A DNA stretch of 59,146 nucleotides, the filler included, from Candidatus Woesearchaeota archaeon (GTDB taxonomy: Archaea > Nanobdellota > Nanobdellia > Woesearchaeales > GCA-2685855), in the NCBI GenBank assembly GCA_002685855.1. It is 4 parts of 4 records of this genome, joined end to end, with 100 filler letters (N's around TTAATTAATTAA, not from the genome) between each part and the next. Parts side by side here need not be neighbours in the genome. Positions count along the whole stretch, not along the records: positions 16,554 to 32,465 come from NYYS01000022.1; 3 more parts are not named here. One strand, written 5' to 3'. Shown piece after piece: positions 16,454 to 48,642 of this stretch; the stretch's first letter is position 1, and the number at the start of each line of letters is the position of its first letter. Below the pieces are notes generated by a model. The model was not told where the DNA came from. It worked only from the letters and a program-made list of their open reading frames with translations, and ran no database searches. The position numbers were made by a program, and so were the translations under genes.

Positions 16454-16553
16454 NNNNNNNNNNNNNNNNNNNNNNNNNNNNNNNNNNNNNNNNNNNNTTA
16501 ATTAATTAANNNNNNNNNNNNNNNNNNNNNNNNNNNNNNNNNNNNNNNNNNNN
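16454..16553. other. artificial contig linker
   Basis: N run with central TTAATTAATTAA (stops in six frames). Confidence 0.98.
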
Positions 16554-17060
16554 ACGGGGTTTGAAGTAGATGTCTTCTCCGAAGTCGTGGAAGAGTGCTC
16601 CTTTTATTGCGGCCATTACGTAATAGGTTGGTAGATCTTTATCTTTGAGAAGGGAGTCTATTCCTCTTGCCAAGCCTGTTGGGTGATAGATAGCATAGTC
16701 GTCTCCGTTTTTTCTTCGTTTATCCTGGTAGCCTTCGATACAGATTTCGATCGATTTTCGCATGAGGTAGCGGAAGGGGTTTTGTTCATCATCAAAGATT
16801 GTTAGGCTGTGGTGCGGCATCATCTGTGCGAGATAGCTTTCGAGGTTTTGGTGAAACTGTGGGCGATCGTGGAGGTCGAAGCCTGTTCTGTTGTGTGCTT
16901 TGTCATCTATTTGCTCAACTATTGCGGGAATAAGCCGGGAGAGGGTGCGTTTTGCGCCATTGAGTTGGCAGGTTTCTTTAAATTCTTCGGCAAATTCGCT
17001 GTCCTGTTGGTCAATATTTGCACGAAATCGTTTTTTCTTTTTTTTTGTTGAATGAGGCAT
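16554..17060 (-). CDS. RelA/SpoT-type HD hydrolase domain protein, truncated at contig end
   Basis: RRKNGDDYAIYHP..LA...ALFHDFGED resembles the RxSGEPY..HP...LLHDxxED pattern of RSH/Mesh1 HD domains. Confidence 0.65.
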
Positions 17061-17244
17061 TTTTTCTTAATAAATGGAAAGCGAGAATGTTTAAAAAAGG
17101 TTTCGAGGAGGGTTTATAAAGGAATTGGATAGGTATTTTATAGATACTAGTATTTTAAGGATATTCTCATAGGAATATTTCTTTCAGAAATCTTTAAATA
17201 ATGAGGGGGATGTGCCCTCTTACTACTAATTGGAGGAATATAGA

Positions 17245-18453
17245 ATGGAAAACCATACATATTTTTTTACATCAGAGAGTGTGACCGAGGGTCATCCGGA
17301 CAAAGTTTGTGACCAGATTTCAGATGCTGTGTTGGACGCTGTTCTTGCGAACGATTCTGGGGCAAGGGTTGCGATTGAGTGTTTGACAAAGACGGGTTTT
17401 GTACTTGTTGCAGGTGAGTTGACTACGAGTGCCTATGTTGATATTCAGCAGATTGCCCGGCGTACGATTAAGGATATTGGGTATAATCGGCCAGAGTATG
17501 GGTTTGATGCAGATACCTGTGGTGTGATTGTTTCGATTTCTGAGCAGAGTCCGGATATTTCACAAGGAGTGAGTGAGGGTGCGGGTTTGTTCAGCGAGCA
17601 GGGTGCTGGTGATCAGGGGATGATGTTTGGTTTTGCTACGAATGAGACTGAGGAGTTTATGCCTTTGCCTATTGTGCTGGCTCATAAGTTGACGAAGAAG
17701 TTGACTGAGGTGAGGAAGACGGGTACGCTTCCTTTTTTGCGGCCGGATGGGAAGAGTCAGGTTACTGTTGAGTATAAAGAAGGCAAACCGGTTCGTGTGG
17801 ATGCGGTTGTTGTGAGTGCGCATCATGATGCGGATGTTTCTCATGAGGAGCTTTCTAAGGAGTTGAAGGCTCGTGTTATTCTTCCTGTTGTGAAGGATTG
17901 GGTTGATGAACAGACGAAGTTTTTTATTAATCCTACAGGGAAGTTTGTTGTGGGGGGGCCTGTTGCAGATGCGGGTTTGACAGGTAGGAAGATTATTGTT
18001 GATACGTATGGGGGGCATGGAAGTCATGGCGGGGGATGTTTTTCAGGTAAGGATCCTTCAAAGGTTGATCGGAGTGCGAGTTATGCTGCGCGGTATATTG
18101 CGAAGAATATTGTTGCTGCGGGTCTTGCGGATAAGTGTGAGGTTCAGTTGGCGTATGCGATTGGTGTTGCTGAGCCTGTTAGTGTATTAATACACACGCA
18201 TGACACGAATCGAATTCCGAATGAGAAGATTCGCGAGTTGGTGTTGAAGCATTTTCCTTTGAAGCCGCAGGATATTATTAAGCAGTTGGATCTTAAGAGG
18301 CCTATTTATAGGAAGACTGCGTCGTATGGGCATTTTGGGCGGAATGATCCTGACTTTTCTTGGGAGAAGCTGGATAAGGTTGAGGCGTTGGTTGCTGATG
18401 CAGGTGTGTTGGCAAAGCCTGTTGCGACGGGTGAGCAGGTTCCTTTGGATTAA
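17245..18453 (+). CDS. metK: S-adenosylmethionine synthetase, bacterial/eukaryotic type
   Basis: [49 protein letters not shown]. Confidence 0.97.
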
Positions 18454-19754
18454 AGCTCTCTGTCTGAGTGTTCAATGATTACAGGTGTTGGCCTGTATTC
18501 TATTTTTTTTTGGAGGTGGCGGATGTCTTCTGTTATGAGGAGAATTCCGCCATTTGTTATGTTTTTTCTTTCTTTGATTGCTTGGGCATAGTGTGGTTGG
18601 TGGCTTGAAGTGATGATGATGCCGGTTCCTGTTTTTCCTTGTTGGGTGTCGTTCGGGTTGGGATAGTTTATGAGGTAGCGAAGGGGTTGAAATGTGGGAT
18701 GGGGGTTTGTTCGTATTTCTGTGATGTGGTAGATTCCTTCGGGTGTTGCTTTGTCTCCTTCTTTTGTTTTGGGATGAGGGTTTGTTCCGAGGGTGATTGG
18801 GAATGTGTGGTCTGTTTTCCATCCGTGTTCGGTGTTTATGAGAAATGAGAGGGTGTATTGGTCTTTGTCGATGTAGAGTGATTGGATTTCATGTTCTCCT
18901 AGGAGTTGTTGGGTGCGTTGTTCGTTGTATTGTGTTTGTTGTTGAGCTGTTTTTTGGGGTGGTATTTGGGTGTTTGGCATTCTTTTTTCTATGAAGTCGT
19001 ATCCTTCGAGGATGGTTATTATTGTTGTGAGGGCGAGGAGGAATTTTGCAATGCGTGCGTTTCGTGTGTTCTTTCTTTGTTGTTCCATGGCTATGATGTG
19101 GTTTTGGAGTACTGATTCAAAGCCGCGTGCTTCTTCTGCTTGTTGGTGGTAGTCGTAGTGTTCGAGGAGTTCTGTCCATCGTTGGGTGTCAAGGTGGAGT
19201 TGGGTGAGTTGGGTGATTTTTTTAGGTTTCCATTTTGTTTTGACATAGGTTTGTTGGAGTTTTTTGAGTTGTTGGAGTGCTTTTTCTGCTTCTTGTTGGT
19301 GTTCTGTTGGGAGGGGTTGGGTTCGGAGTTTTCTTTTTTTGTCGTCGAGAGTTTGGGTGTAGAGGTGGATTCGTTGTTCTAAACTGTGGTTTCTCAGAAG
19401 GGTTGCTTGTTGTTGTATTTGTTGTAGTTGTTCTTCTTGTTTTTTGAGTGTTTGGAATGTTGGTTGTTGTGTGAGGAGGTGTTGGGCGATGGTATCAAGG
19501 GTTTGGTGGAGGTGTTCCTGGTGTGTTGTTGTTTTTTGTTGATGGGTGTGTTCTATTTGTTGGAGAAGGTCTTCTTCGGCAGGTGTTTTTTCTTTTTCTG
19601 GGTTGTTGAGTGGGAGGTAGGATTCTCTTGTTGTGGTTATCCAGTCTAGTGTTTCTTGGGGTGTTTGGAGGTGTTGGGCTGTTTGGAGGTGTTGTTCGAG
19701 GTTTTTTCTGGTTAGGTGAGGGTGTTGTGTTTTTCTGTTTTGTGTTGGGGACAT
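18450..19754 (-). CDS. coiled-coil plus TM plus degenerate L,D-transpeptidase (YkuD-like) domain
   Basis: IDKDQYTL...FPITLG...[14 protein letters not shown]...INYPNPND...GTGIIITS...TNGGILL; catalytic His and Cys positions substituted. Confidence 0.75.
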
Positions 19755-19756
19755 TG

Positions 19757-20839
19757 TTAGTCCCTGTGTCGTTGGTGGTAGTGTTGTTCGAGTTGGTCGA
19801 AGATGTCGTCAGGGTTTTGTGCTTCGGGAACAAAGGGTGTTGGGAGTTTGGGTGCTGTTGTTTTAAGGAGTTTTTTTGTTGTGAAGTGTGTTTTGTGTTC
19901 TACTTGGTAGAGTTCCTGAATGAGCGTTTCTACGTCTTCTGTTTTTGTGAAAAATTCTTCTGGGAGGTCGTCGAAGGGGCTGTAGAGTTTGGCTCTTTGG
20001 AGTGCTTGTCCTATTCCCTGGTGGAGTCGTACGAGTCTGTCCGATATTGTTGTGATGCGTTGTTTGTATTCTGTTGTAAGTCTTCGTTGGTGTGCAAATC
20101 CTGTTATTCCTTCGTCGATGACGTCAAGGGCGGTTGTTATGGTTTGGAGTTGTTCCAGGGTGTTTTCTTTTGCTTTGTGGAATTGTCTTTGGGGGAGTGT
20201 TTCGATGTTTGGGTGTTTTCTGTTTTGGGGGTGTGATTCGAAGTAGGCTTGTTCTTGTTCCTGGACTGCTTTGTAGCCTTTTGCGAGTTCTTTTCGTACT
20301 TCTGTTAGTTCGTCGTATGCGAGTTGTGCATTGTCGAGTTCTGTTGTGAGGATGGTGTCTTTTCTTGTGTAGAGTGATCCTGCATGTTTTCCTGTTTGGA
20401 TGAGTTCTTGAAGAATGGGGAGATAGTTTTCTAGTTGGTCGGTGAGTTGATCTCTTTGTTGTTGGAGTGAGGGGGTTTCTTGGATGGTTGTGTTGACTTT
20501 TTCTTCTATGAATATGCTTTTTATTGCTTTTGTGAGTGTTCTGAAGAGGCGGGGGAGGTATCCTTTTATTGTTCGGCTTTCTATTCTGTAGCTTCCGTGT
20601 CTGAGTTCCTGAAGTGCTTCTTTTGCTGATTCTGTGTAGGAGTCGTATTCTTTGAGGGTATGGAGGTAGGAGTCGTATTCCTGTCTTGAAGTGATGTGTT
20701 TGCTGAAGAAGTAGTCTGCGCTGAATCTTCCATCGAGAACGAGTTGTACTAATTCAGAGGTTGATTCTTGTTGTTTTTCCTGCACAATCTGTTGGATATT
20801 GAGGATTTTTTCTTTGTTGGGTTGGGGGAGTGATTCCAT
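19757..20839 (-). CDS. hypothetical coiled-coil protein
   Basis: 360-aa helical, heptad-rich ORF; 2-nt gap to the downstream gene. Confidence 0.7.
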   Translation of the reverse strand: MESLPQPNKEKILNIQQIVQEKQQESTSELVQLVLDGRFSADYFFSKHITSRQEYDSYLHTLKEYDSYTESAKEALQELRHGSYRIESRTIKGYLPRLFRTLTKAIKSIFIEEKVNTTIQETPSLQQQRDQLTDQLENYLPILQELIQTGKHAGSLYTRKDTILTTELDNAQLAYDELTEVRKELAKGYKAVQEQEQAYFESHPQNRKHPNIETLPQRQFHKAKENTLEQLQTITTALDVIDEGITGFAHQRRLTTEYKQRITTISDRLVRLHQGIGQALQRAKLYSPFDDLPEEFFTKTEDVETLIQELYQVEHKTHFTTKKLLKTTAPKLPTPFVPEAQNPDDIFDQLEQHYHQRHRD

Positions 20840-20872
20840 TTTTTTAGAGCTTTCGCTAGGTCTATGCTGTTC

Positions 20873-21319
20873 TTAGTGGGTGTCTGGGAGAGGGATAGAT
20901 TGGAGCCACCTTCCTACTTTGTTGAGGAATGGGGTTGTTTCTTTTGTGTCTGTAGAGATATAGATGGTGTCAGGGACTGTTATTCTTAGGGTATCGTTTA
21001 TGATGGTTGTGAGTGTTTCAGGAAGGCAGGGATGGTAGTTTGTTCCATGGACTGTTCCGTCTTCCTGTACTGGAAAGCGTTCTCCTGTGGCTGTATTGTG
21101 CTGGTAACAGGTTAATGTGTTTGTTTCGGTGAGTTCGAGATCGTGATGGAGGGAGAAGGGATGAGGTGTGAATCCTTCTTCTACCTGGATTCCTGAGTAT
21201 TTGATAGGAAGGATGATATTTCTTCGTAGTTCGTAGAGGTCTCCAAGATAGGCCGCTGTGAAGTAGCTTCCTATGAGTGCTGTTCCAAGAAGGGCTTTTG
21301 AGATAAGGGTGAATGCCAT
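20873..21319 (-). CDS. hypothetical membrane-anchored protein
   Basis: 148 aa with N-terminal hydrophobic helix. Confidence 0.65.
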   Translation of the reverse strand: MAFTLISKALLGTALIGSYFTAAYLGDLYELRRNIILPIKYSGIQVEEGFTPHPFSLHHDLELTETNTLTCYQHNTATGERFPVQEDGTVHGTNYHPCLPETLTTIINDTLRITVPDTIYISTDTKETTPFLNKVGRWLQSIPLPDTH

Positions 21320-21472
21320 AATTGAGAAGAAGCAGGTATTCTTAATATGTCTACTGGCAATTTTTTCGAAAGATTTTCGAGAGTTTTAGAGTATTTCCGT
21401 ATTTAGATGGGTAGCAAGATGATAAAAAGAGAATAAGAGAAGAAAAAAAATAAAAAAGGGAGGCTTAGTGCC

Positions 21473-24400
21473 TCATTTCTTTTCCTGTGCCTTTTTGACA
21501 AAGAGTCCTACAAAGACGATCACTACCAGTACGAGCACGATCCATGGCCAGGGGCTTGATTGTGCTCCTTCTCCTGCAGCAGATTCATCTGCTCCTATTG
21601 TTTCTGTTGCAGGCGGTGTTTCTCCGGGTGTTTCTGTTTCTGGTGTTTCATCTGTTGTTTCTGCTTCTTCCTCTGTAACAGGTTCTACAGCTCCTACTGC
21701 AAAGACAGAGAGTCCGGGTGATTCTGCACTAAATGTGTATTCTGTGTCGTCTTCTCCTGTCTGTGTTGTGACAAGTTCGGTCCATGCTGCGTCTGCATAT
21801 CTGAGCAGTACTACGGTTGCAACGTCGATGCTTCGTGCTTCTAGCCAGTTCTTGGTTACTGTGAAGTCGATTGTTACTGTTCCAACGTCTGTTTCTTCGA
21901 GGTTTTCGTGTGTAATCTCTACGTATTGGTAGATTGACTTGTCTGCAGGTGCTGATGGTGCTGCTGAAGGCAATGTAGCTGTCTTGATCACTTCAAAATC
22001 TACACTTGTGACTGTGTTGAGGACTTCGAAGGTGATGCTTGCAAAGGAGATTGCTGCATCTTTGACTTCGACAATCTTATCTCCTACAGCGAGTTCGCTG
22101 AAGAAGAAGCTCTTCTTGACTTCTGCTGTTGCTTCTTCGTCTGCTGAAGCGGCTCCGCCACCACCGCCTCCGCCACCTGAGCTTGAGCTACTGCTTGAGC
22201 TGGTACTACTAGACGTTGAGCTGCTTGTGCTGCTTCCCAGGTCACCTGTTCCCCAGACACTGAACTCACATTCTGGGATTTCGAACTTACAGGTTTTGTT
22301 AAAGCTTGCGTTTAAGGTCACGTTGTCTGTCTTGTTTGTACATCCTGAGAGGTTGTCTGCACAGTGCCAAAGTTCTGTTCTTGCACAATCTTCACTCTGA
22401 ATTGGTATCTCGAGGAGACATCTCTCAGGTTGCAGATTGTTGATGATCTTTGATGCTGCATCTGGCCCCATTCCTGTATACGGTCCTACAGTGTTTGCTC
22501 CTTTTGGAAGATCTCCTGTTGCGTCAACATCTTTGATCTTATCGTTCAGGTTGAGCTCTTTGAGTGTTGCTCCCATGAGTTCAATGCCAAAGATACCTGT
22601 GTCGTTTCCTGATGCGTTCACTGAGAGGTTGATGTTTACCTTTCTTCCTTCTGTGTAGTTTACCAGGAGTCCTGCTGACTGTCCACAAACCTGTCCTTGC
22701 TGGTGTTCGTAGGTTCCATCCTGCCCAACGTCGTATTCGACTAGCCATCCTGCGGGTACTTCAATTCTTGTTGTGAAGTTACAGAGCGGACAGTCTGTTG
22801 AGTTTACTGTTGTGGTGTTGAAGCACTTACTTACTGCACAGTTGCCTGTCTCGTCGCATACTTTCAACTTGTAAAAGTACATGACATTGTTAGTTAGTGC
22901 TGCTGTGACGCCAAGGGTGGTGTTGGTGTTTGCATAGATCTCTGCGCTGTGCCACTTCTTGTATGTCTCTACTGCTGCTGTAAGTACACCCAGGTCGTCG
23001 ATTGTGTCGTTGATTGTCGCACAACCTGAACTGTTATGATACCACCAGAGTGTTCCGTTTGCGGGTTCATCTGTTGAATATGTCACGTAGAGACTGTCTG
23101 GGTATTTTTCCACCTTGTTGGTTTTTATCTTTGGTGCAGATGTGTCGTTGTAGTTAGGATCTTCAACACCAAGAGCGTTGGTTACACAGTAGGTGTGGCC
23201 TTTACAGTCTGGGTCAAAGCATCCTGCCAGTTCATCTCCGTCGTTGTCGATTCCGCTATCAAAGCAGTCTTCCTTTTTGTCAAAGCCGTGCTGGAAGAAC
23301 TCTGTACAGTCTGGGTCTTCCTGAGATGAAATGCCGTCTCCGTCACAGTCTGCTCCTTTTTCCCAGCAGCATTCTACTCCAAAGTCGATTGTTCCCGGAG
23401 TAAAGTATCCTGGACTTACACTATCCTGTACATTAGTAGAGTTTCCTGATCCGTTATCTGTTGCGGCTGCTACTCTGAATGTTGCTGTTGGAGAGTAGAG
23501 GCTGCCATACTGTGCAAGATCATCCTTTGCTACACCCATCACAAGTCCTCCAGCTTCCTGGCAATCAAATGCGTGTCGCAGTTGTAAGGGAATCTCTGAT
23601 GCAACCCATCCACCACTGACGCATCGGTATCCAATAGATGTATCTGTTAGGTCTCCATTGGTGAAGTTTCCTCTATAGGCAAGCTTGAACTCAAATCCTA
23701 CCAGATTACTATCATGGTCTGCTGCGCAGTTGTTTGTCGAGTCGTCATCTGCGTCGAGGTAGACCCATGCAAGGATGGGCTCTGCCCCATTTCCTTGACC
23801 TGAATCCATTCGTACTCCGTTACAAAATCCTGCTTTCTTTACATCGAGTACATTGACACCGAATCCCCATGCATCTCTCATGTCTTTAAGGCCAACACCG
23901 CAGATATCTGTTGTGTTACTGAGGTTGGTTTCGTTTGAACCTGTTTCCCGGCAGGTATCTGTGGCAATGATGAGTGGTGCACCAAACTCTGCCTGCTTAA
24001 AGAAGCCTGCAATGGTTTTATCTTCGCACCAGCCTGTGAGCCATTTACATTGTGCGTTTGCATTACATCCTGTTTGGTTGCCGATACTGAAGCAAGCAGG
24101 TTCACAACGAGCTCCATAGCCATCATCCATCCAAGTGCAGTTTCCTGCTGAACCGTTTACACAGGCGTCAGAATTCTGTTGGAGGCTGAAGTTCATAAAG
24201 CATTGTTCTGCCATTGTTGAACAGAATCCTCCAAAGTAGTCGTCGTTCAACCACATACATCCGAGGCTTGCATCACAATTACCTTCTGCGTATTGTTCAC
24301 AACCGGCCGCAAAATTGAGGTCGCAGAATTCCATCCGCTCATCCATGAAGGAACATTTTTCCTGGGCGTTACACCCAGACTCGTTTCCGTTGTAGAGGAA

Positions 24401-27136
24401 GCAGCTGCTTCCGCCAAAGCCAAAGTCTCCTCCTCCGAAGTCGCCTGGTTCACAGAATCCTGATGACTGTGAACAGTTAGTGTTACCAGTACAGAGAGAT
24501 GCATTTAATCTGTAGCTCTCATTAAAGCAGATTGAATCACAGCTTCCCATAAAGGGATCCCATGCACAACCTCCTTTGTTATTACATGCTGTTGCGTTCC
24601 AAGCCACTGTTTCGTTCATACTACATTGGTCCATGACAAAGTCGCATCTTGAATAGTTTAGGTCTCCAAACTGCTCTGTAACCCATTCACAATGGCTTCC
24701 CGCTGTTGTACAATTAGATGAATTCATGGCATTCCAGCACTGCATTCCTGCAGTTTCATTGATTCCGCACATTGCGCCAAATCCTGTGACCCAACTGCAG
24801 TTATTTGTTGTACAATCAGTTTGGCTTCCATCATAGATCCAACACTGAGCGCCAGGAACATCGCAGATTTCGGTTCCATAGTTATCGAGCCAGCTACAAC
24901 TGTTCGATCCGCAGTCGTCTGCATTCTTCCACTGGAAGCAGTCCTTGAAGTTTCCGCCGCAGAAGGGGTCTGAATAGCATTCTGAATCTGCACAATCTAC
25001 CTTTTGATCTCCATCATTGTCCATTCCGTCATAGCAGAGCTCTGAACCTGAACCCCCTTGTCCTACTTTGGAACAGCGTGCTGTTGTGTCGTCCCATTGG
25101 CAACTGTTCTGGGTGCCGAGACCAAAGTCAACACAGATGGTTTGATCAAAGCATTTTGAACAGTCATCATTACAGCTTTTATCGTTTGCGCTCATACACC
25201 TTCCTTCTGAAGGATCGTTCGGGTCTCCTATCCACTTACAGTTAGCCCGTGATTCTTTACACGCTGTTTGTGGTCCTCCTTCCATAGGATCACCAAGGTA
25301 GGTACAGGAATCACAATCACTGTGGCAGTCCTTTGTGCCTCCTTTGTCAAAGAAATCTTTGACCTCACACATACCAATTCCATTAGGGGCGGTGAATGTT
25401 GCATTAGCCGCTACGAACTGACATTTTCCTGATTTCGAGTTCTCACAGGCACTTTGTGCGCCTGAAACATTTGTCCAGTTTGCACCACTTGACTGAAATT
25501 CACAGGCCCAACAGTTGGTATCACAGGTCTGACCGCCACCAACACCAAAGGCCATCTCGCAGTGTCCTTCTGGGATCGAGTTGTTATCAGAGTCACAGTA
25601 GGATTCTATGATCCACTTTCCTCCGGCATATTCACAGTTTTTCTTGTTCTTTATATTATACATACCGCCATCGTCAAGGCCGTCTGTCTTGAAGGTACAG
25701 TGTTTGGTGGTATTATCCCATCTACAGGGCATATACCACGGCGGCCCAGCTACTTCGTTACAGTTTGCCTGATTGCTGTAGAGCTCAACATCTTCACAGA
25801 AATCTTTACCGTCACCTTGGTCTTTGAGGTCGTCCCAACATTGGGTCGTATAGTAGTTCTGGGTACAGTTGGTTCCGTTCCAGCTACAACAGGTTGAGAA
25901 TGCAGACATCTCGTTGCATGCCTGTGAGTCGTTGAGTCGAAGACAGGAGAGCATTCCATCTGAAAGATTTGCATTGTTCTGGCAGAGAGATCCATCCCAG
26001 GTACAGCCAACCGTCCAATTACACAAAGTTTCATTAAAGTCAAATACATAGCATCCTGGATTCCAATCGTCATGGACATCGTAGCTCGGTTCCTGACAGG
26101 TTGAATTTGTTCTGTTCCAGAAACAGTAGAAACTTTCTAAACAATCCCATTCAGTAGTAAAGTTCGCACAGGTAGTGCTTGTATAGCTCTCGTAACACCA
26201 AGGTGCACTCCAGGCACAGGTTAGTCCTACGGTGTTGTTTACACATGCAGTATCAGTTGTTCCATCATAGTCCCAACAACCAGGTTGCTGGCACCATCCA
26301 ATGTCTCCTGTTATCCAAGTACAGTTGAAGCCTGCTCCGCTTCCTGCAATACAATCATTTTGTGTTGTGTGATCCCAACAGCTAACATCATAGCAAAAGG
26401 GCGACTCCCAGGTACATCCTGCTGTGTTACATGCTGTCTGGTTTGTATTATCATACTGCCAACAACTGTTTCCTTCATAACAATAGAAAGCGTTTGAATC
26501 CCATGCACAGGCAGAGTCTGCTACACATGCTGACTGGTTTGCGTGTGCCTGATCCCAACAGTCTGACTCATCACAGGTAGAAGATTGTGCATTCCATGCA
26601 CAGCCAGATGCAGCATTACAAGGTGTTGCTGCTGTATGACTCCAGCAGCCCTCTTCAAAACAGTTTCCCCATTGACAGCTTCCTGTTGCGTCACAACCGG
26701 TCTGGTTGTTTATTCCCCAACACTCCATCGAACCCGTACATTCAAGGTACCAACTACAGGACTTGTCAAACGAATTGTTTATACAGTTAGTATCGTTTGT
26801 CCCAGAAAAGCTCTCACAATTTGCTTCTTCACAAAATCCTTCACTTGCAGAAAACCAAGTACATACTGTCCCTATTGAGGCATTGCTGGCATTACAGCCT
26901 ACCTCATTGTAGAGTCCCCAACAACTTATTGTTTCACAATAGGGATCCCACCATTGACAGGTGGCGTCTGCGAGACAAGATGTCGGATTATAGTTGTAGT
27001 CTGCACAAGCAGCAGATGCGTTGGATGAAAGAAAGATGCTCATCATCACGACGATGATTGAGAAAAAGGTTAATTTTGTAATAGCTTTTTGTCTAGCAAC
27101 AGAATTCATAACAGATACCATGGTTATTCCCCTCAC
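21473..27136 (-). CDS. giant Cys/Trp-repeat cell-surface glycoprotein with PGF-pre-PGF domain and C-terminal TM anchor
   Basis: Signal peptide, many CxW repeats, CxDGxDNDGD..DC.D..C motifs, many NxS/T sequons, Ser/Gly linker, YQYVEI...FTVTKNWL...AESPGLSVFAV, TM plus basic tail. Confidence 0.85.
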   Translation of the reverse strand: MRGITMVSVMNSVARQKAITKLTFFSIIVVMMSIFLSSNASAACADYNYNPTSCLADATCQWWDPYCETISCWGLYNEVGCNASNASIGTVCTWFSASEGFCEEANCESFSGTNDTNCINNSFDKSCSWYLECTGSMECWGINNQTGCDATGSCQWGNCFEEGCWSHTAATPCNAASGCAWNAQSSTCDESDCWDQAHANQSACVADSACAWDSNAFYCYEGNSCWQYDNTNQTACNTAGCTWESPFCYDVSCWDHTTQNDCIAGSGAGFNCTWITGDIGWCQQPGCWDYDGTTDTACVNNTVGLTCAWSAPWCYESYTSTTCANFTTEWDCLESFYCFWNRTNSTCQEPSYDVHDDWNPGCYVFDFNETLCNWTVGCTWDGSLCQNNANLSDGMLSCLRLNDSQACNEMSAFSTCCSWNGTNCTQNYYTTQCWDDLKDQGDGKDFCEDVELYSNQANCNEVAGPPWYMPCRWDNTTKHCTFKTDGLDDGGMYNIKNKKNCEYAGGKWIIESYCDSDNNSIPEGHCEMAFGVGGGQTCDTNCWACEFQSSGANWTNVSGAQSACENSKSGKCQFVAANATFTAPNGIGMCEVKDFFDKGGTKDCHSDCDSCTYLGDPMEGGPQTACKESRANCKWIGDPNDPSEGRCMSANDKSCNDDCSKCFDQTICVDFGLGTQNSCQWDDTTARCSKVGQGGSGSELCYDGMDNDGDQKVDCADSECYSDPFCGGNFKDCFQWKNADDCGSNSCSWLDNYGTEICDVPGAQCWIYDGSQTDCTTNNCSWVTGFGAMCGINETAGMQCWNAMNSSNCTTAGSHCEWVTEQFGDLNYSRCDFVMDQCSMNETVAWNATACNNKGGCAWDPFMGSCDSICFNESYRLNASLCTGNTNCSQSSGFCEPGDFGGGDFGFGGSSCFLYNGNESGCNAQEKCSFMDERMEFCDLNFAAGCEQYAEGNCDASLGCMWLNDDYFGGFCSTMAEQCFMNFSLQQNSDACVNGSAGNCTWMDDGYGARCEPACFSIGNQTGCNANAQCKWLTGWCEDKTIAGFFKQAEFGAPLIIATDTCRETGSNETNLSNTTDICGVGLKDMRDAWGFGVNVLDVKKAGFCNGVRMDSGQGNGAEPILAWVYLDADDDSTNNCAADHDSNLVGFEFKLAYRGNFTNGDLTDTSIGYRCVSGGWVASEIPLQLRHAFDCQEAGGLVMGVAKDDLAQYGSLYSPTATFRVAAATDNGSGNSTNVQDSVSPGYFTPGTIDFGVECCWEKGADCDGDGISSQEDPDCTEFFQHGFDKKEDCFDSGIDNDGDELAGCFDPDCKGHTYCVTNALGVEDPNYNDTSAPKIKTNKVEKYPDSLYVTYSTDEPANGTLWWYHNSSGCATINDTIDDLGVLTAAVETYKKWHSAEIYANTNTTLGVTAALTNNVMYFYKLKVCDETGNCAVSKCFNTTTVNSTDCPLCNFTTRIEVPAGWLVEYDVGQDGTYEHQQGQVCGQSAGLLVNYTEGRKVNINLSVNASGNDTGIFGIELMGATLKELNLNDKIKDVDATGDLPKGANTVGPYTGMGPDAASKIINNLQPERCLLEIPIQSEDCARTELWHCADNLSGCTNKTDNVTLNASFNKTCKFEIPECEFSVWGTGDLGSSTSSSTSSSTSSSSSSSSGGGGGGGGAASADEEATAEVKKSFFFSELAVGDKIVEVKDAAISFASITFEVLNTVTSVDFEVIKTATLPSAAPSAPADKSIYQYVEITHENLEETDVGTVTIDFTVTKNWLEARSIDVATVVLLRYADAAWTELVTTQTGEDDTEYTFSAESPGLSVFAVGAVEPVTEEEAETTDETPETETPGETPPATETIGADESAAGEGAQSSPWPWIVLVLVVIVFVGLFVKKAQEKK

Positions 27137-27312
27137 ACATTTTTTTTATAATAATATTATGTTGTATTCTTCTATTCTTCGCATAGGTTATATATAAACA
27201 TTACGATGTTATCTAGGAAAGGTTATGGATAAAAATATTTTGCAGGTGTTGTCTAAAATGTTTAAGTTTTAATTTAAAACTATTTAGGTTTTTTGTGTTT
27301 GAAAAAGAAAAG

Positions 27313-27463
27313 CGCTGCGGCCCGGACTTTCATCAAGGTTTTCCCTTGTTTTGAATTTCCCGATCTTTGCGAACGTTTCTTGGAGACTTCGCAAGGATCT
27401 CCGGGAATTCCGGAAGGAACTGGCTCTCAAGGCCAGCGCAATACCAGATTATGCGACCGCAGC
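27313..27463 (-). tRNA. tRNA-Ser(UGA) with two T-arm introns (53/54 27356-27400; 59/60 27327-27349)
   Basis: Spliced GCTGCGGTCGCATAATCTGGTATTGCGCTGGCCTTGAGAGCCAGTTCCTTCCGGAATTCCCGGTTCAAATCCGGGCCGCAGCG with long variable arm; junction helices TCCC/GGGA and TTCA/TGAA. Confidence 0.88.
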
Positions 27464-27575
27464 GCATGCGCAGGTCGCGACCGAAAACAACAGATGTTTT
27501 CGCGTATGCGACCGCAGCGTTTTTGCATAGATCGCGACCGAAAACAACAGATGTTTTCGCGTATGCGACCACAGC
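27450..27575 (-). repeat. tandem repeat (55/57-nt period) of the tRNA-Ser 5' 14-mer separated by a hairpin unit
   Basis: TATGCGACC(G/A)CAGC at 27450, 27505 and 27562; identical TCGCGACCGAAAACAACAGATGTTTTCGCG at 27475 and 27532. Confidence 0.92.
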
Positions 27576-27642
27576 ATGTTTGTCTAGAAAAGGGTATGAT
27601 TTTTAAACTTATTGAATTAGGACGTTCATACGGGTTCTGCTG

Positions 27643-28149
27643 CTATTGATGGTAGCGGTACATGTTGAGAAAGCTTTTTACTTCATTTTTGAGGTCGGTG
27701 CAGTGTTGTTTTGCTGCTGCTTCTGAGGCTTCTGAGTATTGTTTGTAGATGAACTTGTCGAAGAGTGTTCTGAAGAAGTGGAAGACAGCGCGGGTTTCCC
27801 AGGTGCCTTCGTAGTCGGTTGTGTGGTAGGCGTCGAAGATGATGCTGGCTTTTCCTTTGACAAGGTGAAGTTTTGCTCCGTTTTTTTCGATTTCTACATC
27901 GTTCAGATGGGTAAAATAGCCTGTTACTTTTATTTCGATCTTGACATAGTCAGTGATTTTTTTATAAGGGATTATTTCTAAGGTTACTTGTTTTCCTTCT
28001 TCGTAGACCTCTTCGTAGTTTTTTGTTTCCATTTTGTCAAAGCCGCGTACGCTGAACCATTTGTCGATCATTCGGTAGAGGCCTTTTAGATCTATGAGTC
28101 CTTCGTATTGGATTTGGTCTCCGTCCACAACTGTTTTTATTTCTGACAT
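27643..28149 (-). CDS. hypothetical protein (paralog of 28151-28684)
   Basis: Shared Y.GL.D..GLY.....WF...E....E pattern. Confidence 0.8.
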   Translation of the reverse strand: MSEIKTVVDGDQIQYEGLIDLKGLYRMIDKWFSVRGFDKMETKNYEEVYEEGKQVTLEIIPYKKITDYVKIEIKVTGYFTHLNDVEIEKNGAKLHLVKGKASIIFDAYHTTDYEGTWETRAVFHFFRTLFDKFIYKQYSEASEAAAKQHCTDLKNEVKSFLNMYRYHQ

Positions 28150-28150
28150 G

Positions 28151-28684
28151 TTACACCATTGTTGGATAGGCTGATTCTGATGTTTGTATACCTAGATATT
28201 TTTTGACTTGGGTCATGAGGTCCATAACCTGGTAGGTGAGCGGATCATAGTGGCCTGTTTCAAGGTCCCAGCGGGCAATGATGTCTTTGTATATTTTAAA
28301 GAGGAGTTGTTTGAATTTGCCTTCTTTGTATTGGTCTTGCCAGTCGAGTTCTACTTCGACTTTGAAGTTGATCTGGATTCTGCCTGTCATGCGTTTCATG
28401 GTTTTCCCGTTGATGGTGACGTCTACCTCTTTTGAGTCGAACGTATGAAATGCAATGGTTACATGGTATTTGACGAATTCGGTGACCTCTTTTTCTGCTA
28501 CCCAGTCGAGTTCTATCTCGTTTCCGAGGGGGCTGTAGACTTTGTCTTTATAGCGTTTCTCCCACCACCTGTAGCGTTGTTTTTGGAACCAGTCTGCCAT
28601 GAATTTGTAGAGACCGTCGTAGTCGTAGAGTCCTTTGTAGCGGATTATTAATGGTTTTCCAACAGGATCGACTTTTTTGGACAT
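28151..28684 (-). CDS. hypothetical protein (paralog of 27643-28149)
   Basis: YKGLYDYDGLYKFMADWF...EKEVTEFVKYHV. Confidence 0.8.
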   Translation of the reverse strand: MSKKVDPVGKPLIIRYKGLYDYDGLYKFMADWFQKQRYRWWEKRYKDKVYSPLGNEIELDWVAEKEVTEFVKYHVTIAFHTFDSKEVDVTINGKTMKRMTGRIQINFKVEVELDWQDQYKEGKFKQLLFKIYKDIIARWDLETGHYDPLTYQVMDLMTQVKKYLGIQTSESAYPTMV

Positions 28685-28806
28685 TATGTTTTTAAAGAAT
28701 AGTGAGTTTATATATGTTTCTAAATGGGTGGACGTGAGAATTTAGGGAAAGGCTGGAGAAGGTGGGCAGCGTTTGTGTTGGTATGTTGTTGATATTTTTT
28801 TGAATA

Positions 28807-30693
28807 TTACCTGAGTCTGATACTGTCCAGGTTGCGAGGTGCTACGGTTTCGATCTTGTAGGCGCGTCGTATGCTTCCGCAGAGGTCGAGGATGCGGGAG
28901 TTTTCGCCGTGGTTGACGATGACTTTTTTGGGGCGAGGGATGCATTTTCCTACGAAGTTCATGAGTTCGGATCTGTCTGAGTGGGCGCTGATTTCTATTT
29001 TGTGGACTTCCATTTTTATGGGGATGACGTCGTTTTTTTGGCCATCTTTGAAGATGATTTCTCTTTCCCCTCTTTGTATGCGGCGTCCGAGGCTTCCTTC
29101 TGCCTGGTAGCAGCTGAAGACAAGGCTGTTTTTTGCGTTGTCGGCGAGGTGTTTTAGGTATTCTACGCTGGGTCCTCCGATGAGCATTCCTGATGTTGCG
29201 ACGAGGATGCAGGGGCCTTCTTCTTCGATGACCTGTTTTCGTTCTTTTTGTGATCCGACACGTTTGATGTTTTTTGCGAGGAAGGGATTGTTTTCTGTGT
29301 GGAAGATTTGTTGGCGTACTGTTGAGTTGAGGAATTCTGGATAGGCGGTGTGGATTGCGGTGATGTCCCATACTAATCCGTCGATGTAGAGGGGGATCTC
29401 TGGGATCTTTTTTTCTCTGATAAGTTTGTCGAGGATGATGATGACCTCTTGTGCTCTTCCGCTTCCGAGTGTTGGCATGAGTATTTTTCCGCCTCTGTTG
29501 ATGGTATTCACAATGATTTCTGCGAGGTATTTGTCTTGTTCTTTTGCAGGGGCCATGACGTTGTCCTTGCCGCCGTAGGTGGCTTCGATCATGAGGGTTT
29601 CGAGTCTTGGAAATTTGGTTGCTGAAGGGGAGAGGAGTTGGGTTTTTCCGAATTTCATGTCTCCTGTGTAGAGCATGTTGTGCAGGCCGTTTCCGATGTG
29701 GAGGTGGACCATTGCGCTTCCGAGGATGTGTCCTGCTTCGTAGAGGGTGAGTCGTACGTCGGGGGTGATGTCTGTGACTTCTTCGTAGTTGAGGGTTACG
29801 GTGTGTTTGAGGCATTCTTTGACTTCTTCGCTTGTGAAGATAGGTTCTTTTCCTTCTCCGCGCATGATTTTTATCATGTCGAGTTGTAGTAGGCTCATGA
29901 TGTCTCGTGTTGGTTCTGTGCAGTATACAGGTCCTCTGTAGCCGAATTTGAAGAGATAGGGTAATAATCCTGTATGGTCGAGGTGTGCGTGGCTGATGAT
30001 GACTGCGTCGAGTTCTTTCATGTTGAATTCTGGGCTGTCCAGATAGGGGTAGTCTCCTTCATGTGAGGGGTCTATTCCACAGTCGAGGAGGATTCTGCTT
30101 TCCGGTGTTTGGAGAAGGAGGCAGCTTCTTCCTATCTGTCTTGCGCCACCGAGGTAGCTGATGCGTACCCATTCTTCTTTTTTTGCTCTGAGCCAGCCGT
30201 TGTAGATGCGTTCTCCTGTTTTGTGGAGGAATTTTCTTCTGTAGTCGCTGTTTTGGTAGAGTACGGCTCTGATGTTTTCTATGATGTTAGATCTGATTGG
30301 GGGGGTTCGTTTGATGATGGGAACCCAGCGGGTTTGTTTTTTTATTTCAAGGAGGTTTTCTCCTTGTTTTCCTATTGCTAATCCGGGTTTTTCTGATTCG
30401 AGAATTACGATGCTTCGTTGGGGGTCGAAGATGAGGTTGTCGATCTGTGTTTCTTTGCCGATGATCTCTTTTATGATTTTTTCTGCTTTTTCCTCTTCGA
30501 TGGTTATGGATGGGTCGGGTCGGAGTTCGATGCGTTTTTTTATTTTTCCGACTATTTCCTTGATCATTCCTTTGTTGTCGAGGAAGAAGTCTATGTCTTT
30601 TGTGTAGAGAACGATGTTTGCTCCTTCAAATGTTGCGTCGTTGATTTTTCCTGTTGGTAGGTCTTTAAGGATTTCTTGTAATATGTCACTCAC
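28807..30693 (-). CDS. fttA: aCPSF1/FttA beta-CASP ribonuclease with KH domains
   Basis: PGLAIGKQG KH motif, SHAHLDH, AGHILGSA, SAHSDR; follows psmB as is typical in archaea. Confidence 0.96.
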   Translation of the reverse strand: MSDILQEILKDLPTGKINDATFEGANIVLYTKDIDFFLDNKGMIKEIVGKIKKRIELRPDPSITIEEEKAEKIIKEIIGKETQIDNLIFDPQRSIVILESEKPGLAIGKQGENLLEIKKQTRWVPIIKRTPPIRSNIIENIRAVLYQNSDYRRKFLHKTGERIYNGWLRAKKEEWVRISYLGGARQIGRSCLLLQTPESRILLDCGIDPSHEGDYPYLDSPEFNMKELDAVIISHAHLDHTGLLPYLFKFGYRGPVYCTEPTRDIMSLLQLDMIKIMRGEGKEPIFTSEEVKECLKHTVTLNYEEVTDITPDVRLTLYEAGHILGSAMVHLHIGNGLHNMLYTGDMKFGKTQLLSPSATKFPRLETLMIEATYGGKDNVMAPAKEQDKYLAEIIVNTINRGGKILMPTLGSGRAQEVIIILDKLIREKKIPEIPLYIDGLVWDITAIHTAYPEFLNSTVRQQIFHTENNPFLAKNIKRVGSQKERKQVIEEEGPCILVATSGMLIGGPSVEYLKHLADNAKNSLVFSCYQAEGSLGRRIQRGEREIIFKDGQKNDVIPIKMEVHKIEISAHSDRSELMNFVGKCIPRPKKVIVNHGENSRILDLCGSIRRAYKIETVAPRNLDSIRLR

Positions 30694-30727
30694 TAGAATG
30701 CACCTCTTGTATGTTAAAAAAATGTAT

Positions 30728-31354
30728 TTAGAGTTTTGTTTCTACGATTTTTTCTAAAACTTCTCGGACGCCATCTTTTGTGATGACGACGACGTTTATG
30801 CCGTTTCCGCTTGCTGAGTCTCTCTGCATTGCTGTGTTTATGCACTTGATTGCGAGTTCTACGCCTTCTTGTTCTGTTAAGCCGGGTTTGTATTCTGATT
30901 CGAGAACTCCGTAGACAAATACTGATCCTGATCCTGAGCTGACAAAGTCGTCAATTTCGCTGACTGCTCCGTCTGGGTAGAGGTCGAATAGGTGAAGGTC
31001 TGTGTCTGCTCCTGCTAATATGAAGTGTGTGATGCCAGGTATTACAGAGAAGTTTCTGATGTTGCCGTACATGTATCCTGCAAGGAGGTTTGCTACTTCT
31101 TTGAGGGTGTTTTCTCTTCCGGTTCTGATCTCTTTGAGTTTGAGTTCGGCTTTGAGGAGTTTTACTAAGAGTTGGATGTCTGATACTGTTCCTGCTGTTG
31201 TGATGGCTATCTTGTTGTTTATTGGGATTACTTTTTTTACTTTTTTGTCTGCTATAAAGTGGCCTGCTGTGGCTCGTTTGTCTGCTGCCAGGATAAGGGC
31301 ATCTTTACAGACGATTCCTACTGTTGTTGTTCCAGTTTTGAGAGATTCTTCCAC
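30728..31354 (-). CDS. psmB: proteasome subunit beta
   Basis: KTG/TTTVG propeptide site, ADKRATAG, GSGS, RDSASG. Confidence 0.97.
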   Translation of the reverse strand: MEESLKTGTTTVGIVCKDALILAADKRATAGHFIADKKVKKVIPINNKIAITTAGTVSDIQLLVKLLKAELKLKEIRTGRENTLKEVANLLAGYMYGNIRNFSVIPGITHFILAGADTDLHLFDLYPDGAVSEIDDFVSSGSGSVFVYGVLESEYKPGLTEQEGVELAIKCINTAMQRDSASGNGINVVVITKDGVREVLEKIVETKL

Positions 31355-31442
31355 TCTGTTTTCACCATATTTTTATTCGGAGAATGCTTTTCTTGATGGC
31401 TGTAACGGGTTTCTTTTTATAAAGTTTTTGGTTATTCTACTA

Positions 31443-31952
31443 TTAATAGGATGGAAGGGCAGGGCAGGGACCGGCTATTGTTGGGGTTCCTGTAGCGTCT
31501 TTTACATTGGCGAGGAGGGTTCCTGTTGCTCTGTGTATGGGAGAGCCTGTCTCTCGTTGGTAGAGGATTTCGATGTTGAATTTTACCTTGTTTCTGGGCG
31601 GGAGTTCGGGTGCAAAGGGAAGGCAGGAGAATGACTCTGTTGTTGATGGGTCAAATCCGCCTATTCTACAATTACACTCATCGATGTGGCCATAGCTTTC
31701 TGTTGAGATATTGAGGTAGTGGATCATGATGGGTTTGCCAAATTCGTTTCTGATGTCGAGTTCTACGAGGTTTTTGAATACTTCGAAGTCGACGCATTGG
31801 AGCTGGTTGCTGATTTCGCAGGATTCTTTTATGTATCTGCTGGGTGAGAGGATGCCGAAGTAGCTGAGTGTTCCGATTGTGAGGAGGATGAGGACGAGTA
31901 TCCAGCCGTAGGTTACTATAAATTCAAGGCTTATCTGGGCTTTTGTTTTCAT
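31443..31952 (-). CDS. type IV pilin-like protein (class III signal peptide)
   Basis: KA/QISLEFIVTYGW plus hydrophobic helix, then Cys pairs. Confidence 0.8.
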   Translation of the reverse strand: MKTKAQISLEFIVTYGWILVLILLTIGTLSYFGILSPSRYIKESCEISNQLQCVDFEVFKNLVELDIRNEFGKPIMIHYLNISTESYGHIDECNCRIGGFDPSTTESFSCLPFAPELPPRNKVKFNIEILYQRETGSPIHRATGTLLANVKDATGTPTIAGPCPALPSY

Positions 31953-32422
31953 TGGACTGCTCCGCTTATTGTTCCTTGTACGTTGTGGGTTCTTGTGCTT
32001 GCTATTTTATTGTGGACGATGTTGAGGCCTAGTTCTTCTCTTTGTCCTGGTGTGAATACTGTTGTTAGAAAGTCGCAGGTGAATTCAAGGGTTTCTCCGT
32101 TCTGCATGAGGACGGGTGGTGGTGGGCTGGGCGGATCACAAGGGATCTCTTCTTCTGTTGTAAGGGATTTGGCTTGGAGACGTACTTCTGCCTGGTGGCC
32201 GAGGTTGTTTCTGAGCATGAGTTGTGCTCTTCCTTTTCCTGCATTATCTACGAGTTGGAACTCTTCGCAGGCGAATTCTGTTCCTGTCTGGCAGGAGTCT
32301 GGGAGAAGTCTGTCTGTGTTTGAAAAACCAAGATAGGCAATTGCAGCAAGACCTAAAAGGATCATCATTAATGCCCAGCCATAGGTTGTTATAAATTCTA
32401 GGGATGCTTGTGCTTTTTGCAT
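31949..32422 (-). CDS. type IV pilin-like protein (class III signal peptide)
   Basis: KA/QASLEFITTYGW plus hydrophobic helix; paralog of its neighbour. Confidence 0.8.
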   Translation of the reverse strand: MQKAQASLEFITTYGWALMMILLGLAAIAYLGFSNTDRLLPDSCQTGTEFACEEFQLVDNAGKGRAQLMLRNNLGHQAEVRLQAKSLTTEEEIPCDPPSPPPPVLMQNGETLEFTCDFLTTVFTPGQREELGLNIVHNKIASTRTHNVQGTISGAVQ

Positions 32423-32465
32423 ATTTAATTTCCTAGAAGCTGTTTTTTATAAATGTTTGTACAAA

Positions 32466-32565
32466 NNNNNNNNNNNNNNNNNNNNNNNNNNNNNNNNNNN
32501 NNNNNNNNNTTAATTAATTAANNNNNNNNNNNNNNNNNNNNNNNNNNNNNNNNNNNNNNNNNNNN
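32466..32565. other. artificial contig linker
   Basis: N run with TTAATTAATTAA. Confidence 0.98.
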
Positions 32566-48542: not shown

Positions 48543-48642
48543 NNNNNNNNNNNNNNNNNNNNNNNNNNNNNNNNNNNNNNNNNNNNTTAATTAATTAANN
48601 NNNNNNNNNNNNNNNNNNNNNNNNNNNNNNNNNNNNNNNNNN
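48543..48642. other. artificial contig linker
   Basis: N run with TTAATTAATTAA. Confidence 0.98.

Follow-up and report, generated by a model that had tools for sequence, protein, structure and literature searches.

The tRNA-Ser(UGA) gene of a Candidatus Woesearchaeota archaeon (GenBank assembly GCA_002685855.1) is preceded by a tandem array of two units, each consisting of a copy of the 5' end of the same tRNA followed by a hairpin. The units belong to a tRNA-leader cassette which is real, widespread and structurally conserved, and which has apparently not been described so far. We favour, at about even confidence, the reading that the units represent a small hairpin cassette of Woesearchaeota-type genomes, non-autonomous and trimmed off as a leader.

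The array at the tRNA-Ser(UGA) locus

The window (the whole stretch of 59,146 nucleotides analysed here) consists of four contigs (C21-C24) separated by N spacers at 16454-16553, 32466-32565 and 48543-48642, and only 16554-32465 is contiguous with the array. All features of the locus described here are on the minus strand. Each unit starts with a copy of tRNA nt 1-14; after this come a stem-loop, the GGTC, an arm of 11 nt that is antisense to nt 11-1, and lastly a linker of 4-6 nt. The outer copy (27575-27562) has T in place of C at position 5. The core of unit 1 (27536-27561) has 2 bp, a 1-nt bulge, an 8-bp stem with a 5-nt loop and the conserved GGTC; its antisense arm (27525-27535) lies in register against copy nt 11-1, where 8 of 11 positions pair, and is followed by a 6-nt linker (27519-27524). 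The middle copy (27518-27505) is exact, as seen in the sequence and by repeat search. Unit 2 then has a core identical to that of unit 1 (27479-27504), an arm (27468-27478) identified by pairing and fold, and a 4-nt linker (27464-27467). The third copy (27463-27450) is the start of the tRNA body; the presumed RNase P site is 27464/27463.

The three 14-nt copies are spaced by 57 and 55 nt, and the two units share an exact repeat of 39 nt. Of the 51 tandem-repeat rows obtained for the window, that of the array scored highest (194; period 57, 2.2 copies), and the fold of each unit was better than those of its shuffles, with z about -4.2 to -4.3. A TATA-like box is located at 27607-27600, 24 nt before the outer copy, with the spacing found at tRNA genes that have no units. 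The sequence-only reading had reported both the two tandem copies with identical hairpins and a TATA box at 27608-27601, about 25 nt upstream of the outermost copy. Both are confirmed, the box with a shift of one position.

That reading overlooked two introns in the T arm. The tRNA-Ser(UGA) gene (27313-27463) is 83 nt long once spliced in silico, with G73 and no encoded CCA. A 45-nt putative intron at 53/54 (27356-27400) has an hBH-type splice motif, and its removal gives a canonical T arm; a 23-nt putative BHB intron is located at 59/60 (27327-27349), a position at which introns are present in many relatives. The gene matched Rfam RF00005 at 27463-27313 with 31.5 bits, and the in-silico spliced sequence was called as tRNA-Ser(tga) with a normal T arm. 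ARAGORN called zero tRNAs on the window and misses tRNA-Ser(UGA) because the T arm carries the two introns. An oligo-T run at 27302-27311 is a likely terminator. Among the window region and 8 further loci, no Rfam family matched the unit, and the tRNA alone passed.

The genes adjoining the locus encode an FttA/aCPSF1 nuclease and a proteasome subunit. Two similar-looking proteins of 168 and 177 aa, neither with a Pfam match, are encoded immediately upstream of the promoter of the tRNA (27643-28149 and 28151-28684, minus strand). A gene at 21473-27136 (minus strand) encodes a secreted cysteine-rich repeat protein of 1887 aa with a C-terminal membrane anchor, also without a Pfam match.

There is next to no probability that the array is an assembly artefact. 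Although the whole array is not spanned by any single public contig, its unique junction between the units is bridged by contigs from three runs in two studies, of which one run is possibly the source sample. Arm and linker differ between the two units, and the unit family is widespread. The array is not taken as an artefact because the junction is bridged and the layout recurs elsewhere.

Distribution of the unit among tRNA genes and genomes

The array had been treated as a one-off; it is instead a member of a widespread covarying family. A genome search for the hairpin found that in the source genome a unit also precedes tRNA-Ser(CGA) on C65 and tRNA-Thr(UGU) on C16, each with the 5' end of its own tRNA. 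A covariance model matched 4 units in this genome, all at tRNA starts and nothing else, and gave 3-6 matches per genome across five genomes. Comparison with relatives showed the same layout in many other genomes. A pattern for an upstream copy with the TCGC core matched 80 of 401 genomes of the order, some of them by chance and not all of them fetched; the reversed control pattern matched 0. Among 190 tRNA starts in the fetched loci we found 138 genes with 156 distinct units, a proportion that gives no prevalence because the loci were chosen for units. The four Ser anticodons account for 127 of these genes, and 11 could not be parsed. At the level of the phylum, 21 of the 121 genomes drawn matched the covariance model, and the listed positives were all within the same order.

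Copy number ranges from 1 to 4 per array, the largest arrays having four units, and from 1 to 8 per genome. Units are 45-118 nt long with a variable, unpaired 3' linker of 3-53 nt, and the direct repeat flanking the insert is 12-14 nt. Copies are about 95% identical to their own tRNA at nt 1-7, a figure biased by the picking rule.

The host tRNAs (the four Ser isoacceptors, Thr and Arg-UCG) all have GCAUA or GCACA at nt 10-14. At tRNA-Thr starts the pattern matched in 15 of 401 genomes, 10 of which were unit-like by eye, and units were found on tRNA-Arg-UCG too. Copies were present at 0 of 65 other tRNA starts in the fetched loci, and the common TAGCTY class gave 6 pattern matches in 151 genomes, none of them a unit. 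In G096, a single-contig genome, 3 of the 4 Ser genes carry units and 0 of the 26 other tRNA matches examined do (30 of 36 in all). Among the matches listed, Poseidoniales-type and some other matches were without an upstream copy. The tRNA-Pro(CGG) gene of the source genome is an exception with a different layout, missed by the scan of other tRNAs: it has an intron in the D loop, and 30 nt of leader and 5' end are duplicated around a long hairpin (G000:C18:55240-55500).

In viral contigs the full pattern had 0 matches, and no tRNA-linked unit was found there. A viral origin was rejected since the 14 core-pattern matches in these contigs were not tRNA-linked and look like chance.

Structure and covariation

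Of the 156 units, 101 could be anchored on the core only and the remaining 55 have variant cores. In the anchored units the antisense arm pairs with the variable nt 4-7 in 277 of 404 cells, compared with 154 +/- 9 after permutation. In an independent metagenome set picked on the core alone (58 units parsed from 65 loci, with about ten chance matches retained), arm pairing was 120 of 232 against 70 +/- 7 permuted. The covariation of 82 aligned units was 0.365, whereas shuffled units gave 0.132 and slid partners <=0.116, and RNAalifold gave the same fold; related units are not independent in these covariation and permutation statistics. In the 11 genomes (of 25) that qualified, each arm was also compared with all tRNAs of its genome that bear units: 28 of 33 fitted their own tRNA better than the others, 1 was tied and 4 did worse.

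Pairing is uneven along the helix. Positions 7, 9-11, 14, 15 and 17 are paired in 93-100% of units, and positions 8 and 3-6 in about two thirds (in the 101 units, 93 at position 7, 67 at position 8 and 100 at position 10). A conserved 2x1 internal loop is formed by A12-U13 opposite C (AU/C), and it is probably the recognition site of the cassette's mover or binder. The pair next to this loop, at nt 14, covaries (AU 66, CG 9 and GC 2 of 82). A group I P1 helix and a ribosomal protein S8 site were considered as well and set aside, as nt 14 shows covariation with the base located two positions ahead of the arm. In 6 of the 6 parsed units whose tRNA has C13, the unit kept U13, and the core is therefore element-derived and not copied from the tRNA. 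Stems are identical at 11.1 of 15 positions within genomes (36 pairs) and at 6.1 between genomes (738 pairs). G-U pairs outnumber A-C pairs by 54 to 29, favouring the transcribed strand.

Promoter position, splicing and processing

A TATA-like motif at -36 to -25 was found before 61 of 135 outermost copies, 2 of 19 inner copies, 0 of 138 tRNA bodies and 11 of 21 genes without units. The outer copy therefore holds the ancestral start and the units probably lie inside the transcript, which supports the earlier proposal that the repeats are probably transcribed.

The same promoter position would be expected if the outermost copy were the true 5' exon, with the rest removed by an EndA-type activity in one or two recursive steps, or with an intron being born. 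The source genome has EndA and RtcB genes plus many non-canonical introns, and folding is predicted to be favourable when the upstream copy occupies the acceptor stem. BHB introns are known to have spread among tRNA genes in Thermoproteales (PMC4090602). The geometry of the unit argues against splicing: the internal loop is 2x1 where a BHB would have a 3-nt bulge; in-register pairing of the arm is seen at 184 of 303 positions, pairing after such a bulge at 95 where 85 are expected; and the bases past the putative 3' cut agree with the tRNA in only 10-35 of 101 units. Plain 13/14 introns numbered 0 in 251 genomes, the single match being a short unit. Some outer copies are decayed at nt 1-4, for example that of the Thr unit of the source genome.

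Splicing in an RNase P-less cell was first suspected because RNase P RNA and HARP were both not found in the source genome, whose assembly is 94% complete. Of 141 genomes of the order, however, 128 have RNase P RNA (RF00373), unit-bearing ones among them (the tally includes the unpublished genomes G111, G120 and G131, on which no unit claim rests). Rpp29 is present in the source genome, and HARP passes the cut-off in 0 of 401 genomes. These counts led us to reject RNase P loss as the reason for the units. RNase P-less archaea of the Nanoarchaeum type have a leaderless tRNA system, to which the RNase P RNA of the relatives and the Rpp29 of the source genome do not correspond.

With RNase P RNA common in relatives, no plain 13/14 intron and a geometry that fails for BHB, splicing is very unlikely, and recursive BHB splicing was dropped after negative geometry and ligation tests. 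Two ideas of the sequence-only reading thus found poor support. Both the intron-birth intermediate and the alternative 5' exons are at odds with the missing plain 13/14 introns and BHB geometry, with the finding that no ligation product restores the tRNA and with the RNase P RNA of the relatives. Its third idea, a target-duplicating palindromic mini-element, is the best supported. RNase P cleavage at the last copy would be the simplest route to the mature tRNA, since RNase P RNA occurs in relatives and Rpp29 here, and since the BHB tests and the 13/14 search were negative.

Whether the spare copy could be locked away from the tRNA was modelled by folding at equilibrium, without tertiary contacts or folding order. 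In 45 models the spare copy takes the acceptor strand with a mean probability of 0.70, against 0.26 for the last copy; at the tRNA-Ser(UGA) locus the values were 0.47 and 0.53. When the arm was scrambled, pairing between last copy and acceptor fell in 36 of the 45 models; when the spare copy was scrambled instead, correct acceptor pairing rose only to 0.55. These model results cut both ways for locking. As the spare copy is not locked at equilibrium, a lock must rest on folding order or tertiary contacts.

Comparison with known elements

By the features compared, the cassette does not qualify as a BHB intron, a MITE, a REP or an integrative element. Like BHB introns, the unit is a small hairpin insert that recurs at tRNA genes of a genome and has an arm fitted to the host exon. 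Unlike them, it duplicates the exon, has no BHB and needs no splicing: two 3-nt bulges with a 4-bp helix were not found, and removal did not restore the tRNA. The tRNA-Ser(UGA) gene holds two true introns beside its units. Relaxed splice motifs and tRNA disruption are reported for DPANN (PMC5829648).

Like the bacterial REP/MITE palindromic repeats, such as the GTAG and CGTC families, the unit is a short imperfect palindrome with conserved unpaired bases, non-autonomous and sometimes clustered (PMC3733652). It differs in having 1-8 copies per genome, almost all at tRNA starts, and a target-specific antisense arm. High-copy dispersed intergenic palindromes and an association with Y1 (RAYT-type) were not found, nor were the terminal inverted repeats directly inside the target duplication that define a MITE; the 3' end is the variable unpaired linker.

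In Caldiarchaeum subterraneum, the tRNA-Thr gene has a pNOB8/SSV-type arrangement in which a tRNA 5' fragment and an insertion lie upstream of the intact tRNA (PMC3293823). Integration of this type and the unit are alike in the direct repeat of the tRNA 5' end and in the restored gene. The Caldiarchaeum insert is 1.8 kb long and encodes a recombinase, whereas the unit is 40-100 nt, non-coding and within the transcription unit. Unlike the SSV/pNOB8-type insert, the unit carries a host-tuned antisense arm and forms arrays; it has the repeat of the tRNA end, of 12-14 nt, and no integrase or cargo between the repeats.

The array can also be compared with CRISPR-like arrays, in which short, promoter-proximal repeats are separated by differing inserts. 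In the unit array the repeat is the tRNA start and the inserts are homologous hairpins, not foreign DNA.

The unit is undescribed in the literature searched, which comprised main texts outside subscription journals. The accessible part of PMC4390854 does not contain this layout, and that of a preprint on Asgard tRNA introns (10.64898/2026.10.13.758758) mentions neither the layout nor Woesearchaeota, DPANN or leaders.

Origin and possible role of the cassette

In the reading we favour, the cassette lies between promoter and tRNA body, where it is placed at the D-stem 5' strand of GCAUA/GCACA tRNAs. Its arrival would leave the 12-14-nt direct repeat seen in the loci, and an intact tRNA therefore follows the cassette. 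From the promoter position, it would be co-transcribed with the tRNA; the antisense arm may zip up the spare 5' copy once made, and RNase P would cut at the last copy, the leader being discarded. The observed covariation may reflect RNA-level selection that keeps the arm matched to the host tRNA. The patterns within genomes suggest that cassettes spread among tRNA genes, and that copy number changes by slippage or conversion at the repeats. Whether the cassette works in this way as a safe-harbour mini-insertion at tRNA genes is, in our judgement, evenly balanced.

Patchy presence, within-genome sharing of stems and mixed arrays favour mobility. A protein gene, which we take from its translation to be exosome rrp41-like (G434:C5, 22550-23000, minus strand), has a unit at its start; the first 17 nt of the gene are duplicated, and the unit creates an 18-codon mini-ORF and a new Shine-Dalgarno sequence. 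This is the only clearly non-tRNA case among the model matches whose context was read (of 56). Terminal inverted repeats were absent from the element ends. A search for mobilising enzymes covered four families in 5-14 genomes each, and none of the four was associated with the units. Y1 transposase (PF01797) was found in 1 of 7 unit-bearing and 0 of 7 other genomes. GIY-YIG matches occurred in 3 unit-bearing genomes and 1 other, all in frames of 511-555 aa, and no small nuclease tracked the units; reverse transcriptase occurred in 0 unit-bearing genomes and 1 other, and Cas1 in 1 of 5 unit-rich genomes. The cassette is retained in several genera and families, which is also compatible with a host function.

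Such a function is possible but rather doubtful. The leader would then be an RNA module retained by the host as a switch or decoy tuning the supply of Ser, Thr and Arg tRNAs. As a switch, the arm would pair either with the spare copy, so that the tRNA folds and RNase P cuts, or with the real 5' strand, so that maturation is blocked. The effector might be a protein binding the AU/C loop, or a released acceptor-like hairpin of 50-70 nt that tunes supply or decoys a tRNA-targeting enzyme. The near-invariant core with compensatory changes at the pair beside the loop, the predicted two near-isoenergetic folds, the excess of G-U over A-C pairs on the transcribed strand, the near identity of copies to their own tRNA (subject to the picking-rule bias noted above) and the restriction to GCAUA/GCACA tRNAs all agree with a host module. 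Less easily reconciled with it are the lack of units in most genomes (80 of 401 match), presence that differs among isoacceptors, copy numbers of 1-4 and the unit at the protein gene start. If true, the host device would give isoacceptor-level control of, or a decoy for, Ser, Thr and Arg tRNAs in symbionts, and would represent a class of leader that is undescribed for archaeal tRNAs.

It is unlikely, more so than a host module, that the units are neutral debris, either scars of integrative elements or products of replication template switches at a hairpin, in which the target is copied once forwards and once backwards, with no selection afterwards. Intact tRNAs preceded by fragments of tRNA 5' ends are known where elements have integrated (PMC3293823, PMC9897764), and these genomes contain other duplications around hairpin insertions, at tRNA 3' ends, the tRNA-Pro start and the end of a gene which we take to be secY-like. 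The standard core is absent in 55 of 156 units. Yet independent decaying scars would not be expected to show uneven pairing along one helix or a core common to many families, and the spacers of 40-100 nt encode nothing.

For the entry of DNA inserts into archaeal tRNA genes, the 2026 preprint on Asgard introns (10.64898/2026.10.13.758758) found no general route. The hairpin cassette is an insert that can be defined and counted: its target (GCAUA/GCACA) and its landing point are fixed, the target is duplicated, the structural core is conserved, and there is spread within genomes. It occurs in a lineage rich in non-canonical introns and gives a testable handle on how inserts arrive at tRNA genes. 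It is also a possible new small structured RNA and a caution for tRNA annotation of DPANN genomes.

Other inserts and duplications

Several other inserts were observed as well. At L363 (G234:C28:11000-11600) an outer tRNA-Ser(CGA), which carries a leader unit too, is interrupted after the variable arm by a stretch that includes a whole further tRNA-Ser(CGA), whose acceptor stem differs, and the 3' part of the outer tRNA resumes downstream. Nested tRNAs were also seen at L361 (G023:C28), L052/L362 and L106. At L359 (G184:C4:1-450) the tRNA-Ser(GCU) gene has an inverted unit abutting its 5' end.

The last 27 nt of the presumably secY-like gene (G000:C52:24235-24370) are duplicated around a hairpin insertion. 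At L332, L348, L351, L334, L355 and L356, tRNA-Ser genes have their 3' ends duplicated downstream around inserts, and these include the linker motif of the 5' units in reverse complement; the motif occurs within introns as well. The 59/60 introns of different tRNAs in G000 share long blocks (C23:4780-4943, C65:1592-1750, C65:9840-10030 and C18:57330-57460), a sharing that resembles intron transposition.
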